Origin: a virus | Taxonomy: Duplodnaviria > Heunggongvirae > Uroviricota > Caudoviricetes | Length of the DNA stretch: 4,486 nt | Virus record (IMG/VR): IMGVR_UViG_2630968639_000001 | Location: 1-4,486 of that record | Strand: one strand, 5' to 3' | In this document: positions 1 to 4,486 of the stretch, one piece after another | How positions within the stretch are numbered: position 1 is the stretch's first letter | Layout: every line of letters begins with the position of its first letter | Notes under the pieces: generated by a model | What the model was told of the DNA's origin: nothing | The model's database searches: none | Seen by the model: only the letters and a program-made list of their open reading frames with translations | Made by a program: the position numbers and the translations under genes

Positions 1-446
1 GCACCTTTGTGTGTGATACGCAGGCGTGTACCGATGCCATTATTAATTGCGTTACCACCAGCAGCACCGGCAGCGTTACTACCACCATTGCCACCGCGTC
101 CATAGACAGTCACACCTGCGTTGATTACAAGGCTGATATAAGAGTTGGTAAGTGAACTCGGGAAATCTAAACATGGCACGCCGCTACTGGACGACACCAG
201 ATCCCCTGTAATGGTAACAACGACTGGCGTCGCCCCCTGGGATTTTAAATAGTTGATCAGTGTGTCTTTGTTGTAGTTATGATTCGCACCGATGCTGTAC
301 TGAACTTCTTTAGATCGCCCGGCCATTTGAGACATTGAACCAGCCGCTGGCAGTTGCACCGCCGTTCGAGCCGCACTCATCCATCTCTGGCCTGTCACAC
401 TGACAGCCGAAGACCCAATCCAACCGGGAACACCGACAATTGGCAC
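1..446 (-). CDS. Putative T2-type gp38-like tail-fibre adhesin, N-terminal part (3'-partial, continues beyond window start)
   Basis: Hand translation from GTG 446..444 gives MPIVGVPGWIGSSAVSVTGQRWMSAARTAVQLPAAGSMSQMAGRSKEVQYSIGANHNYNKDTLINYLKSQGATPVVVTITGDLVSSSSGVPCLDFPSSLTNSYISLVINAGVTVYGRGGNGGSNAAGAAGGNAINNGIGTRLRITHKG with no stop through position 1. AAGGAG (plus strand 454..459) sits 7 nt upstream of the GTG. The N-terminal VGVPGWIGSSAV..TGQRWMS motif and the glycine-rich GRGGNGGSN..GG motif match my recollection of T2/T6-type gp38 adhesins. The ORF track misses it because it is partial and GTG-initiated. Confidence 0.7.
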   Translation of the reverse strand, partial: MPIVGVPGWIGSSAVSVTGQRWMSAARTAVQLPAAGSMSQMAGRSKEVQYSIGANHNYNKDTLINYLKSQGATPVVVTITGDLVSSSSGVPCLDFPSSLTNSYISLVINAGVTVYGRGGNGGSNAAGAAGGNAINNGIGTRLRITHKG

Positions 447-453
447 ATCTAAT

Positions 454-459
454 CTCCTT
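454..459 (-). promoter_or_regulatory. Shine-Dalgarno (AAGGAG on minus strand) for the downstream adhesin-like ORF
   Basis: Plus strand ctcctt at 454..459 is AAGGAG on the coding strand, 7 nt upstream of GTG 446..444. Confidence 0.6.
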
Positions 460-480
460 TTTGATGTGAATATCCTGAAT

Positions 481-500
481 GGTGAGGGTGGCCCCTCACC
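481..500 (-). other. GC-rich intercistronic stem-loop (8-bp stem, 4-nt loop) between the fibre stop and the adhesin start
   Basis: GGTGAGGG (481-488) pairs perfectly with CCCTCACC (493-500). On the minus-strand transcript it lies 11 nt after the TAA and is followed by AUUCAGGAUAUU, with no U-tract. Confidence 0.4.
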
Positions 501-511
501 ATTCACCTTGA

Positions 512-3500
512 TTACATTTTTGCCTTCAGTTCGCGCACTTCCTCGCGCAGCTCTTTGACAGCCTCGACCAACATGCCGATAACGCCGTTGTAGTTAAGAC
601 GCAGACGAGGCTCTCCTGACTGATCGTTATGGTCAACCGTTACCAGTTCAGGCTGAACATTCTGGACGTCCTGAGCGATGAGGCCGCCAGACTGCTCATA
701 ACGGCCACAGACCTGAATCTCGTAGAGAACACCTTCGATCTGCTCCAGCTTGTCGAGCGCCCGCTCAATTTTGCGAATATTGCGCTTACTACGGCGGTCG
801 GAACGGATGTAAACGTCATTAAAACTACCGTTGCCTGCGCAAACCCAAGTGCCGTCGTTCTGGAGATAAGCGGCAGCGTCAGTGCCGTTTGCGGTACGTG
901 AGTTGTTGATCATGTAAAAACCAAACTGACTGTTTCCCAAGCCACCCAAGAAGAATTTGCGATCCGCGTGGTCTTGTCTCAACAACGCTTGTGCAGAGCT
1001 TGTACTTACAGCGTTCCTCCCGAAGATGACGTTCTGGTTACGCATATCTATCCACGCGCCAGAGCCGCTGTTGATGGAAAAACGGTTGGCGTAAACCCAC
1101 GCACTTGACGTGATGTCACCCGTTACACTCAACGGCTTAAGGCTTTGCAGCGTGCTATTAACGAACCTAAAAACATGGGCGCTATTGGCGTAAACATCCA
1201 GAATGCCATCTCCGTTCTGTTTAAAGCCGGTGTCATTGTCACCCAGAACAATGGAATTACCGCCAAGACCATTGACCACACCCAGCCCAAGACCACCGTT
1301 AACAACAGCACCATTGCCCATTGTTACTCTGCCATTAGTGAGATCTACATAAAATGGACGAAGCGAACCTATATCACCATTTTCTCCCTGGTCTTTTGCT
1401 GTCGGGATAAGGTAAAAATTATTTTCGGAACGGCGAAAAATCATCCCGTATGCCGCATCGTAAATGCGTAACCCATCCGTAGAGCGGATCTTAAGCTGTC
1501 CGGACATCGTACCGCCGCTGTTTTTCATAAATAGCGCATCAATCCAGCCTGCAAATCCCGACTTATTAATGTATAAATTTCCATCATTTGCCAGAATGCC
1601 TCCACCTTGCGTCTTGAGGGGCTGACTCACATTTTGCAGCGTCAGCACACCAGTCATTGTTCCGCCAGAAATCGGTAACGCACCGACATCAGCCGCAGTG
1701 GGTTTGAGAGCAGTGTTGTAATCTCTGCGCCAGGCAGGGGCATACGCGCTACCGTGATTAATATAGGTGAACTGAGCACTGGCAATACCACCTCCGGTTG
1801 TCGTTGTAGGCGTAGTAACTCGGATGGTCATTGCGCCTTCGTGACCTAAAACCTCGATAACCGCACCAGCAAGACAAATATTGCCGACACCTGTATCAGT
1901 GATAATTTTATTGTCGGCATATGACCAAGAGCCTTTCATCATCCAATACGGTACGGCGAAAGCACCACGCTCCTTCAGCCATGCGATAAATTCAGCGGTA
2001 GTCCAGTTGCCAGCCCCAGTACTGTATGACGCGCTAAACGTCTGTGCAGCCCCAACATCTTTCGCTGTGGGTTTATGAGCAGTGGTATAGACCTGCGCCC
2101 AACCAGACCAATTCGCTGTCGAAGTATCACGGCGTGAACGAACATAAACCGGTGCATGAGCACCATCCGTTCCGCTCCAGCCAACAAGCATCTCGCCCTC
2201 ACCAGAAGCACTCGCACCTTTCATGTGCAATACGTTGCCATACATGGTCGGGTAGCTATTGTTGTACGCCTCATACATTTGAATGCCAGCAGTGCCTTGA
2301 GTAGAGCCGCTTAACGCCGTAACTCGGCCACGAGATACCAATGTATTAATATTGATATCGCCTGAACCATCAAACTTAACACCATTGATGTTTCTCGCTG
2401 TTTGCAACTTCGTAGCCGTTGAAGCATTGCCATTCAAGCTACCATTTACGCCACCAGTAACATTGAGTCCATTAGCGATCGTAACAGCACCATTGGCATT
2501 GTTAATGATAAGCGGCCTTAAACTATTATAGGTTCCCAGGCTGTTACCCGAATTGGTCAACATGAAATATGTGTTTGAACCATCGTTTCGGATAAAGAAT
2601 CCGTAGCTTCCGTAGGCAATGCGCAGACCATTCGCCGATTTTGAAATGATCTCACCAGTAGCCGTTAAACCGCCGTTGAGATTTCCTCCGGTTATTGGTA
2701 ATGCGCCGACATCCGTGGCGGTCGGTTTAATGTGCGAACTGTAAATGACATATACCGTTCCATCAGTAAGACCAGTTGGTTTATTCGCTGTATAAGTTGG
2801 TGATGTATGAATCGTTACGCTGGCGTTACTGGTATAATCCCACTGAATATTAACACCTGTGGCGTAATTACCTATTTCAACATAAACATCATAGGTATCA
2901 CCGGATGTATTCACCCATGCAAAATTAGTAAATCCAACCGATGTCCGTCGCCATAATGCACCAGTAATACCCTTTGGATTTCCATTTCCGGCACGCAGAA
3001 CCAGCTCAGAGATGCCTGCTTGATGCGGGGAGCCAACGTTATACCCTGCACCACCAATCAGGCTTATGTAAACCACGGAACTGGCCTGTGGCATGGTTAC
3101 AGTTGCCAGCTTGAACCATCCGGCACCACCACTAAAAGATATTGTTGCTGAGTTGATCGTGCCTATAGACCTTGGAGTTAGCTCAATGTTTTTAGAACCG
3201 TCAAACGACACCCCATTAATAGTACGCGCAGTCTGCAACTTCGTAGCAGTAGCCGCATTACCTGTTGTATTCTGATTACCAGTCGTATTAACACCTGGCA
3301 AATTAATATTTGCAGTACCATCAAAGCTCACGCCGCCGATAGTTCTTGCCGTCTGTAGTTTTGTAGCAGTTGCGGCATTACCAGTGGTGTTCTGATTACC
3401 CGTAGTATTTACACCTGGAAGGTTGATATTTGCAGAACCGTCGAAACCAACTCCACCGATAGATCTTGCCGTCTGCAATTTCGTTGCTGTACTTGCATTA

Positions 3501-4486
3501 CCATTTAATGTTCCGGTGATACCACCAGTAACAGACAACGGACCTGAAACTGTTCCTCCGGTTGTTGGCAGTGCTCCAATATCTAACGGCGTCGGTTTCT
3601 GATGTGTGCTATACATCGTATAAACAACACCATAGGTAACGCTGGAAGGCTTACTCGCTGAATATGTTGGCGATGTATAAATAGAAACTGACGCATTTGC
3701 AGTACAATCCCAATGGATATTTACACTCGTCGCATAATTGCCAATTTCAACGTAAATATCATATGTATCGCCGGATGTGTTGATCCAGGCGAAATTCGCT
3801 AATCCGACAGCTGTACGCTTCCACAAAGCACCTGTAATTCCTTTGGGGTTTCCATTGCCTGCTCGTAGAACCAGTTCTGAAATGCCTGCCTGATGTGGGG
3901 AACCGACGTTGTAACCAGCGCCACCAATCAATGCGATGTAAACGATGGAACTCGCTTGTGGCATGGTAACCGTAGCCAGTTTGAACCACCCTGCCCCGCC
4001 AGAGAAAGACATCGTTACTGAATTTAAAGTACCAATATCTTTCGGCGTTAATGTGATATCCGCAGTCAGTGCTTTTCCGTTAACTTTTCGGTTAGATGGC
4101 ACCCTGCTATTCGCATTGTCATTGGCTGCTTTAACTGCTTTTGGCGTTGCGGCCAGCGATTCACTGGTGCTGTCGACAGCACTGCTAAGTTTCACAACAC
4201 CTTTAGTTGTAAGGCTTGCGTCTTCCATCGCAACTGCACCGGCAATCTCTTCAGCACGATCAGCAGCAGCTTCCGCACGGGTCGCAGCGGATTCAGCAGC
4301 AGTTTTGCTCTGAGATGCTGCCGTCGCACTGCCTGCCGCCTCTGTTGCCTTCGTGGATGCCGTCGTGGCGCTGCCCTTCGCTGCTGACGCCTGTCTGGTC
4401 GCCTCATCTTTTGAAGCAGACGCCGATGAGGCCGATGACGCCGCCGAACTGGCGGACGATGCGGCAGCCGTTTTTGAGGATTCTGC
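512..4486 (-). CDS. Side/long tail fibre protein, 5'-partial (N-terminus lies beyond window end); lambda Stf-like N-terminal region, repeated distal modules, C-terminal peptidase S74 intramolecular chaperone domain
   Basis: ORF track gives 1238 aa from ATG 4228..4226 to TAA 514..512. My hand translation of the minus strand over 4229..4486 in the same frame has no stop and reads AESSKTAAASSASSAASSASASSASKDEATRQASAAKGSATTASTKATEAAGSATAASQSKTAAESAATRAEAAADRAEEIAGAVA before MEDASLTT, so Met 4228 is internal. The following motif KGVVKLSSAVDSTSESLAATPKAVK matches the conserved lambda Stf-type motif from memory. KPTxxDVGALP motifs recur four times and ATKLQTAR tail-fibre repeats are present. No convincing SD precedes ATG 4228. 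Confidence 0.93.
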   Translation of the reverse strand, partial: AESSKTAAASSASSAASSASSASASKDEATRQASAAKGSATTASTKATEAAGSATAASQSKTAAESAATRAEAAADRAEEIAGAVAMEDASLTTKGVVKLSSAVDSTSESLAATPKAVKAANDNANSRVPSNRKVNGKALTADITLTPKDIGTLNSVTMSFSGGAGWFKLATVTMPQASSIVYIALIGGAGYNVGSPHQAGISELVLRAGNGNPKGITGALWKRTAVGLANFAWINTSGDTYDIYVEIGNYATSVNIHWDCTANASVSIYTSPTYSASKPSSVTYGVVYTMYSTHQKPTPLDIGALPTTGGTVSGPLSVTGGITGTLNGNASTATKLQTARSIGGVGFDGSANINLPGVNTTGNQNTTGNAATATKLQTARTIGGVSFDGTANINLPGVNTTGNQNTTGNAATATKLQTARTINGVSFDGSKNIELTPRSIGTINSATISFSGGAGWFKLATVTMPQASSVVYISLIGGAGYNVGSPHQAGISELVLRAGNGNPKGITGALWRRTSVGFTNFAWVNTSGDTYDVYVEIGNYATGVNIQWDYTSNASVTIHTSPTYTANKPTGLTDGTVYVIYSSHIKPTATDVGALPITGGNLNGGLTATGEIISKSANGLRIAYGSYGFFIRNDGSNTYFMLTNSGNSLGTYNSLRPLIINNANGAVTIANGLNVTGGVNGSLNGNASTATKLQTARNINGVKFDGSGDININTLVSRGRVTALSGSTQGTAGIQMYEAYNNSYPTMYGNVLHMKGASASGEGEMLVGWSGTDGAHAPVYVRSRRDTSTANWSGWAQVYTTAHKPTAKDVGAAQTFSASYSTGAGNWTTAEFIAWLKERGAFAVPYWMMKGSWSYADNKIITDTGVGNICLAGAVIEVLGHEGAMTIRVTTPTTTTGGGIASAQFTYINHGSAYAPAWRRDYNTALKPTAADVGALPISGGTMTGVLTLQNVSQPLKTQGGGILANDGNLYINKSGFAGWIDALFMKNSGGTMSGQLKIRSTDGLRIYDAAYGMIFRRSENNFYLIPTAKDQGENGDIGSLRPFYVDLTNGRVTMGNGAVVNGGLGLGVVNGLGGNSIVLGDNDTGFKQNGDGILDVYANSAHVFRFVNSTLQSLKPLSVTGDITSSAWVYANRFSINSGSGAWIDMRNQNVIFGRNAVSTSSAQALLRQDHADRKFFLGGLGNSQFGFYMINNSRTANGTDAAAYLQNDGTWVCAGNGSFNDVYIRSDRRSKRNIRKIERALDKLEQIEGVLYEIQVCGRYEQSGGLIAQDVQNVQPELVTVDHNDQSGEPRLRLNYNGVIGMLVEAVKELREEVRELKAKM
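515..802 (-). other. Peptidase S74 / intramolecular chaperone autoproteolytic domain (C-terminal 96 codons of the fibre CDS); predicted Ser/Lys dyad Ser 802..800 and Lys 787..785
   Basis: C-terminal sequence SDRRSKRNIRKIERALDKLEQIEGVLYEIQVCGRYEQSGGLIAQDVQNVQPELVTVDHNDQSGEPRLRLNYNGVIGMLVEAVKELREEVRELKAKM. The S-x4-K spacing and the GxIAQ..PELV...NYNG.IG.L.EA.KEL pattern fit the S74 chaperone domains of endosialidase tailspikes and T5 L-shaped fibre as I recall them. Confidence 0.8.
1295..1495 (-). repeat. Copy 2 of the paralogous 'GLRI...SLRP...NG.VT' module (aa ~912-978)
   Basis: IRSTDGLRIYDAAYGMIFRRSENNFYLIPTAKDQGENGDIGSLRPFYVDLTNGRVTMGNG; protein-level similarity only. Confidence 0.5.
2342..2440 (-). 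repeat. Isolated fourth, more diverged copy of the ATKLQTAR repeat unit
   Basis: Encodes SLNGNASTATKLQTARNINGVKFDGSGDININT (fibre aa ~597-629); nucleotide similarity to the array is visible around 2391-2440 against 3341-3390. Confidence 0.7.
2450..2650 (-). repeat. Copy 1 of a paralogous 'GLRI...SLRP...NG.VT' module within the fibre (aa ~527-593)
   Basis: ISKSANGLRIAYGSYGFFIRNDGSNTYFMLTNSGNSLGTYNSLRPLIINNANGAVTIANG aligns with the copy at 1295..1495; protein-level similarity only. Confidence 0.5.
2681..3187 (-). repeat. Copy 2 of the duplicated module of about 169 codons (fibre aa ~348-516)
   Basis: Protein IELTPRSIGTINSATISFSGGAGWFKLATVTMPQASSVVYISLIGGAGYNVGSPHQAGISELVLRAGNGNPKGITGALWRRT...KPTATDVGALPITGG. 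Plus-strand shadow ORFs 3093..3275 and 3945..4313 both begin MVTVASLNHPAPP, an independent sign of the duplication. Confidence 0.85.
3188..3502 (-). repeat. Tandem array of 120-nt (40-codon) repeats, about 2.6 copies, encoding ATKLQTAR-type tail-fibre repeats
   Basis: Units at 3383..3502, 3263..3382 and partial 3188..3262 encode GNA[AS]TATKLQTAR[ST]IGGV[GS]FDG[ST]ANINLPGVNTTGNQNTT. Blocks 3361-3420 and 3241-3300 align base for base with scattered mismatches. Confidence 0.85.
3551..4057 (-). repeat. Copy 1 of a diverged duplicated module of about 169 codons (fibre aa ~58-226)
   Basis: Protein ITLTPKDIGTLNSVTMSFSGGAGWFKLATVTMPQASSIVYIALIGGAGYNVGSPHQAGISELVLRAGNGNPKGITGALWKRT...KPTPLDIGALPTTGG aligns colinearly with copy 2. 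The nucleotide similarity is visible at an 870-nt offset, for example 3751-3810 against 2881-2940. Confidence 0.85.
4229..4486 (-). other. Ala/Ser/Thr-rich low-complexity segment of the fibre protein (lambda Stf-type shaft region), in frame with and upstream of Met 4228
   Basis: Hand translation codon by codon: 86 codons with no stop, dominated by A, S, T, K and E in short quasi-repeats (SAxxA, AAxSxx). Confidence 0.8.

Follow-up and report, generated by a model that had tools for sequence, protein, structure and literature searches.

Conserved 40-residue units in the mosaic tail fibre of an SSU5-like phage-plasmid as probable in-frame recombination joints

The 4,486-nt stretch analysed here (positions 1 to 4,486 of IMG/VR virus record IMGVR_UViG_2630968639_000001; hereafter the window) is coding throughout on the minus strand, and carries a tail-fibre gene with an array of 40-residue units built around the motif ATKLQTAR. 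These units are probably conserved shaft modules of a mosaic SSU5-like fibre which double as in-frame recombination joints, a change in unit number being a rare, evolutionary event. The initial annotation had read the same array as a potential fibre-length rheostat, in which gain or loss of 120-nt units would alter the shaft length. That reading stands as regards the preserved frame, the variable unit number and the limit set by the divergence of the units; it overstated the tempo of change, and overlooked both the role of the units as recombination joints and a duplication of 870 nt in which the array lies.

The 40-residue units and their age

Tandem Repeats Finder detected a 120-nt period at 3243-3503 (2.2 copies, score 319), and a repeat search revealed a family of four copies (3426-3502, 3306-3382, 3186-3262, 2355-2431) that lie 120, 120 and 831 nt apart. 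Read on the minus strand, these copies correspond to two full units, a 28-codon core and an isolated fourth core (Table 1), and the earlier description of about 2.6 units plus a fourth copy was accurate in count, coordinates and motif. The array is thus a tandem repeat of constant period (120 nt, 40 aa) within the reading frame of a tail-fibre gene, as is typical of fibre-shaft repeats. Each unit consists of a core of 27-28 residues, GNAxTATKLQTARxI(G/N)GVxFDGxxNIxL, and a linker of 12-13 residues, PGVNxxGNQxTT, rich in Asn, Thr and Gly. The residues N, A, A, K, L, T, A, R, I, G, F and G are invariant across 30 distinct units. The end of the array bears a signature of its own, seen at aa 343-345, 383-385 and 423-425 of the window's fibre and in the homologues P0001-P0120. 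Internal units have IGG and the linker LPGVNxxGNQxTT, while a run closes with a unit that shows ING (or ISG/IAG) and lacks the linker, consistently across homologues.

Units 0 and 1 are identical at 36/40 residues and at 92/120 nt (77%), against 30.1 ± 5.2 matches for random 120-nt pairs drawn from the window (z about 12). Among the codons that encode the same residue in these two units, 19 of 36 differ, a number close to the 22.6 expected at random from the codon usage of the gene; in the other unit pairs 12-14 such codons differ, as compared to 12.5-15.6 expected. The longest exact run common to units 0 and 1 is 12 nt. Since the synonymous sites are saturated and the residues conserved, strong purifying selection acts on the amino-acid sequence of the units, and at the DNA level the copies are old. 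Furthermore, no pair of full units in one reading frame exceeds 85% nt identity in about 95 loci (maximum 102/120 nt), and therefore no recent duplication was seen. On this comparison, the units of the window are old paralogues and not products of recent slippage.

The array sits within a higher-order duplication of 870 nt, in which a core and a domain of 166 aa occur twice (domains A and A' in Table 1). The synonymous sites of this pair are saturated as well. Domain A has no family in Pfam (E up to 10) or NCBIfam.

Table 1. Features of the window (nt positions in the window; aa positions in the part of the fibre encoded there)
Feature	Position (nt)	Position (aa)	Strand	Basis and remarks
Tail-fibre gene, open frame	512..4486		-	1324 codons in window, N-terminus past right end, stop at 512-514; PHROG tail-fibre families, Pfam, synteny
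Unit 0, full 40 codons, GNASTATKLQTARSIGGVGFDGSANINLPGVNTTGNQNTT	3383..3502	329-368	-	Repeat search, translation; nt-identical to unit 0 of locus L008
Unit 1, full 40 codons, GNAATATKLQTARTIGGVSFDGTANINLPGVNTTGNQNTT	3263..3382	369-408	-	Repeat search, translation
Unit 2, terminal 28-codon core, GNAATATKLQTARTINGVSFDGSKNIEL	3179..3262	409-436	-	ING instead of IGG; without linker; leads directly into domain A'
Isolated fourth core, GNASTATKLQTARNINGVKFDGSGDINI	2348..2431	686-713	-	Repeat search, translation
12-nt CAGACGGCAAGA (encodes QTAR), unit 0 copy	3464..3475		-	Longest exact match between units 0 and 1
12-nt CAGACGGCAAGA, unit 1 copy	3344..3355		-	Read directly; commonest high-identity end (3343) comes directly after
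Domain A, copy 1, upstream of array	3554..4051	146-311	-	No Pfam family
Domain A', copy 2	2684..3181	436-601	-	71% aa identity to copy 1; part of 870-nt duplication
PF03406 fibre repeat (T4 gp12/gp34-type), then degenerate core-like stretch NRKVNGKALTADITL ahead of domain A	4049..4216	91-131 (PF03406)	-	Pfam; BLASTP
Peptidase_S74 intramolecular chaperone domain, fibre C-terminus	638..802	1229-1283	-	Pfam PF13884; S16 gp37 tip match, PDB 6f45
gp38-type adhesin gene start ('receptor-recognizing protein'), exits left window end	1..446		-	Pfam PF21721 and PF05268; RefSeq annotation of syntenic plasmids

Unit number and recombination among homologous fibres

Unit number differs between homologous fibres. 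In 120 close protein relatives the spacing of the units is always exactly 40 residues, and 2, 3 or 4 recognisable units are present per array. When the array following domain A was counted in the IMG/VR and Escherichia coli plasmid loci where it is readable (62 loci), one unit was found in 2, two units in 37, three units in 17 and a variant first unit in 6. The fibres of ten E. coli plasmids (1424-1770 aa) differ in the arrangement of their units (u), for example uuu, uuu..u, uu..uu, uuu..u..u and u..u, and identical arrays recur within sub-lineages, e.g. in 15 and in 7 loci. P1-like proteins of the Sv' type, which are 97-100% identical, contain 3, 4 or 5 tandem units and are separated by clean 40-aa gaps. 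When 1.84 billion representative proteins were searched with one unit by phmmer, 5277 clusters were recovered at E ≤1e-3, with a maximum of 14 units per protein. Among the best 146 of these 5277 clusters, a sample in which the ranking of hits by summed score favours proteins with many units, tandem runs comprise 1-10 units, and 40 aa is the commonest spacing (336), followed by 37 aa (56). This family-wide count used a local hidden Markov model built from the unit alignment, a regular expression being prone to undercount divergent units. The initial annotation had proposed such a comparison, and had named a uniform number among homologues as the outcome that would speak against its reading; the numbers obtained (1, 2 or 3 units at this position, 3-5 in P1-like fibres, runs of 1-10 in the family) are far from uniform.

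Two differences of exactly one unit have been mapped between near-identical genes, and they bear out the proposal that gain or loss of a whole unit leaves the frame intact. Over 3 kb, loci L025 and L008 share about 96.5% identity, interrupted once by a gap of exactly 120 nt at the position of the window's array. The first unit of L025 is a chimera: nt 1-27 derive from unit 0 and nt 40-120 from unit 1, so the crossover is placed in the ambiguous interval between these flanks, CAGACGGCAAGA, which is the 12-nt longest exact match between the two units. The use of so short a match, together with the saturated synonymous sites, supports the earlier suggestion that silent-site divergence may limit slippage. 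The same chimeric junction recurs in a second, independent contig with another downstream module, and the chimeric allele therefore appears genuine; it either persisted or arose twice. It is the only pure unit-deletion junction, in two contigs, among the SSU5-like loci examined.

The other difference lies in the P1-like fibre segment Sv', which adjoins a Cin-type invertase gene. Here the alignment of loci L085 and L086 contains one gap, of exactly 120 nt, with zero mismatches over about 1.5 kb around it. As judged from the L025 junction, exact unit deletions do occur at microhomology. In the 5-unit P1-like allele of L086 (3001-5190), the first half of the extra unit resembles unit 3 and the second half unit 2, with 29-nt exact runs shared with each. 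A simple unequal crossover of units 2 and 3 was considered as the origin of this extra unit; its chimeric make-up fits such an origin, but its place within the array is at odds with it.

Most differences in unit number accompany a different downstream module. At least 7 unrelated modules are found directly after the terminal core, and examples of the continuation after the last unit are KNIELTPRSIG followed by domain A', ANISLSPANIGCPASPT, DITLTAAHVAAFARRA, DITLTPKDLDAYSKSE and GDININTLVSRGRVTAL. When the region was compared between the window and 60-odd loci, the ends of high identity, which as megablast end points are approximate to a few bases, fell at 3513, 3343, 3330, 3234-3227 and 3198, all of them in or at the edge of a unit. 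Position 3513 lies just ahead of unit 0, 3343, the commonest, directly past the QTAR of unit 1, and 3234-3227 inside the KLQTAR of unit 2. In L001, L003, L019 and L083, identity with the window returns precisely at 2431, the base with which the isolated fourth core starts. L001 is equivalent to the window minus exactly 831 nt (277 codons) between the third unit and the fourth core (window 2432-3262; also in L019). The cassette so defined, flanked by a core on either side, comprises domain A' and a Gp34_trimer-type domain, and its presence or absence leaves the frame intact.

The exchange appears to extend to another phage-plasmid family. Window positions 3502-2700, comprising the array and domain A', are 96.5% identical in nucleotides to the P1-like Sv' segment (L087 1153-1955), and the match sets in with the first base of unit 0, which points to cassette exchange between the SSU5-like and P1-like families. 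Unrelated modules follow the same motif and the homology breakpoints coincide with it; the alignments thus show that the cores are where homology between fibre genes starts and stops. Because the module swaps, the alignment ends, the 831-nt cassette and the P1-like match all meet at the cores, the conserved cores are, on this comparative evidence, in-frame recombination joints, and the register of recombination also sets the unit number. Recombination of fibre genes with one another at these cores appears to be the dominant process.

Structural relatives, mechanism and competing explanations

The unit has no family in Pfam (E up to 10) or NCBIfam, and PF03406 gave no match to the array alone at E up to 10, being present in the fibre only at aa 91-131. 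When a profile of 30 distinct units was searched against PDB sequences with hmmsearch, only two matches were obtained, namely residues 98-133 of the decoration protein Dec of phage L (6e3c; E 1.7e-5) and residues 316-353 of the PhiM1 tail fibre gp47 (E 1e-3). In a phmmer search of PDB sequences with the array alone the Dec match was marginal only, and it was the 30-unit profile that made it significant. The fibre units carry the Dec-type spike motif NAxTAxKLxTARxI...FDGSxNI. The PhiM1 gp47 paper does not describe the region of the motif, a full-text literature search for KLQTAR returned nothing relevant, and a general search on fibre repeats and length returned nothing specific.

The tail of Dec, about 40 residues long, remains unfolded in the monomer and acquires its structure only in the trimer, where it supplies nearly all of the contacts holding the trimer together (PMC11398494). 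It is antiparallel beta as judged by circular dichroism and an AlphaFold2 trimer model (PMC11398494). An AlphaFold2 monomer of domain A plus the array, computed from a 26-sequence alignment, has low confidence (pLDDT 46.7, pTM 0.37), which is compatible with folding in the trimer only and is no demonstration of it. By analogy with Dec, each fibre unit may be a small module that folds only within the trimer, where it would form a short intertwined beta segment, and the units would stack along the fibre axis like beads. Such trimer-only modular folding would explain why whole-unit gain or loss is tolerated. In-register recombination between cores, in the same or in different fibre genes, would lead to loss or gain of whole units; the same recombination would remove or add whole cassettes between two cores, and would exchange the receptor-binding distal modules, with all three outcomes in frame. 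Unit number would shift the shaft length by a fixed step, and changes would be rare, arising via short microhomologies or by recombination with other fibre genes. Fibre length may in turn matter for infection.

Several points weigh against this account of shaft modules acting as recombination joints. Breakpoints are to some extent bound to cluster in conserved cores, since homologous recombination needs conserved stretches, and the breakpoints themselves carry the imprecision of megablast end points. The one-unit change between L085 and L086 could be a gain or a loss. Many of the comparison loci are draft or metagenome assemblies, even if units of 77% identity should not collapse there. The bead stacking and the fixed length step derive from one distant relative, Dec, whose spike is known at low resolution only, and the bearing of unit number on fibre length, adsorption and host range is putative.

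A true rheostat or contingency locus, with frequent 120-nt slippage and mixed fibre lengths in each lysate under rapid selection, is quite improbable. The tandem, in-frame units of constant period would suit it, one-unit differences do occur naturally (L025/L008, L085/L086), and rapid in-frame duplications in a fibre gene are documented in the Enterococcus phage EfV12-phi1 (PMC6365445). A contingency locus calls for near-identical DNA units, however, and those of the window match at only 92/120 nt, share no run longer than 12 nt and are saturated at synonymous sites; no fetched locus holds a full-unit pair in one frame above 102/120 nt, and the SSU5-like loci examined yielded a single pure unit-deletion junction, present in two contigs. 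The frequent and reversible slippage implied by the word rheostat is not borne out by these figures, nor by the observation that most changes in number come with a module swap. The opposite proposal, that fibre geometry fixes the unit number and arrangement in all functional homologues, draws on the extreme conservation of the unit and on the recurrence of the same array within sub-lineages (15 and 7 loci). It is very improbable in view of the 1, 2 or 3 units found at one position, the differing architecture of ten complete plasmids, the runs of 1-10 units across the family, and the whole-unit differences between proteins that are 97-100% identical.

It is somewhat less improbable, yet still unlikely, that the units are binding sites for a ligand such as a surface polysaccharide, with copy number tuning avidity and not length. 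The Asn/Thr/Gly-rich linker and the ability of repeated fibre domains to bind carbohydrates are in keeping with this. The near-invariant unit is, however, found in fibres with many unrelated distal modules, and also in the capsid decoration protein Dec as a trimerisation spike, whereas the receptor-binding elements of fibres are normally their most variable parts; moreover, a gp38-type adhesin is encoded directly downstream. Hardly any weight can be given to assembly or annotation artefacts of repetitive DNA as the source of the copy-number differences. Many comparison loci do come from draft or metagenome assemblies, and the RefSeq annotation of fibre genes is often fragmented, but at 77% nt identity the units differ too much for an assembly to collapse them, two independent contigs carry the chimeric junction, complete circular plasmids differ too, and a single open frame is kept in all variant genes. 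Conserved shaft modules that double as in-frame recombination joints are therefore retained as the probable explanation.

Gene context, significance and known systems

At the DNA level the window is matched most closely by phage SSU5 and by circular E. coli plasmids of about 105-120 kb, while an identical record was absent from the collections searched. The gene order in these matches is tail-tip protein, fibre and 'receptor-recognizing protein'. From these matches and their gene order, the window is part of an SSU5-like phage-plasmid of E. coli; the tip/fibre/gp38 synteny on a plasmid of this size is combined with an S74 domain at the fibre C-terminus. Full-length fibre homologues measure 1424-1770 aa. 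Pfam domains of the fibre are one PF03406 repeat (aa 91-131), PF21446 (Gp34_trimer) in three stretches and PF13884 at the C-terminus; matches among PDB sequences are the fibre protein S of phage Mu, the C-terminal region of T4 gp34 and the tip of S16 gp37 (6f45). The degenerate stretch NRKVNGKALTADITL that follows PF03406 was aligned by BLASTP with the core TKLQTARTINGVSFDGSKNIEL. An S74-ended fibre with a gp38-type adhesin encoded downstream amounts to a tip of the T2/S16 gp37-gp38 style on an SSU5-like phage-plasmid.

The N-terminal part of the fibre (window 4230-4486, minus strand) is a long Ala/Ser-rich region of low complexity with short imperfect repeats, for which Tandem Repeats Finder gives periods of 21, 12 and 9 nt at 4249-4298, 4346-4368 and 4419-4443. 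In homologues (full open frame of L004) this region runs about 376 residues past the window. Long mosaic fibre genes of this kind are often annotated as fragments in RefSeq despite their open frames. In L001 (3512-7375), L002 (3512-7882) and L004 (3512-7838) the RefSeq annotation shows fragments, pseudogene flags or an internal 'hypothetical protein' on the opposite strand, although each of these fibres is one uninterrupted open frame of 1424-1640 codons.

Variable-number shaft repeats and mosaic fibres are already established, so the general idea would not surprise a specialist. What is new is a common 40-residue unit, uncurated in that it has neither a curated family nor a structure, together with its link to the Dec spike, the mapped natural differences in units and cassettes, and the evidence for a cassette common to SSU5-like and P1-like phage-plasmids. 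It is possible, though rather doubtful, that the ATKLQTAR unit is a widespread self-trimerising bead, a universal splice joint that keeps the frame and by which tailed phages of unrelated types (SSU5-like, P1-like and others) exchange receptor-binding cassettes, and which steps the fibre length up or down to the depth of O-antigen or capsule. Tail fibres determine the host range of phages, and engineered fibres retarget both phages and phage-derived particles. A 40-residue module that can be gained or lost as a whole would be a practical rule for fibre design, and a natural in-frame junction for swapping distal modules between SSU5-like and P1-like phage-plasmids would guide where chimeric fibres may be cut and joined or how their length may be altered.

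The spike of Dec (PDB 6e3c; PMC6449081, PMC11398494) is the only structurally studied relative found. It resembles the fibre unit in the motif NAxTAxKLxTARTI...FDGSANI, in contributing about 36-40 residues per chain, in folding on trimerisation and in being rich in beta structure. Unlike the fibre unit, it occurs only once, as the terminal part of a capsid-binding OB-fold protein, has a 7-residue insertion and forms no tandem fibre array. The PF03406 Phage_fiber_2 repeat of T4 gp12/gp34 (Granell et al. 2017; PMC5537660) is likewise about 40 residues long, present in tandem copies and located in trimeric shafts, and one genuine copy is present in the window's fibre. The ATKLQTAR units, however, match neither PF03406 nor the T4 gp34 and gp12 chains in the PDB profile search, and the gp34 repeat is a mixed alpha-beta domain, whereas the only relative of the unit with fold data is reported to be antiparallel beta.

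Collagen-like and adenovirus-type shaft repeats were ruled out by sequence, the period being 40 residues with no G-X-Y or 15-residue pattern. In adenovirus fibres the number of shaft repeats varies by type and sets the fibre length, and whole-unit differences keep the frame there as well. The adenovirus repeat is a 15-residue triple beta-spiral of unrelated sequence, and it is not known to act as a recombination joint between receptor-binding modules.

In-frame change in tandem copy number inside a fibre gene is also known from T4 gene 37, where tandem duplications alter infectivity (Tetart et al. 1996, as cited in PMC6365445), and from EfV12-phi1, where such duplications appeared during coevolution and long reads revealed mixed copy numbers (PMC6365445). 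Those duplications are recent, identical DNA copies that arise within days under selection, while the units of the window are ancient paralogues. A parallel to the joint function is that of the glycine-rich motifs of T-even gp38, which are described as recombination points (Trojet et al. 2011; PMC3157838); there too, conserved motifs part variable modules, and homology starts and stops at them. The motif of the window differs in being a tandemly repeated 40-residue shaft unit. Because the joint motif is itself repeated in tandem, the register of a crossover would change the unit number.

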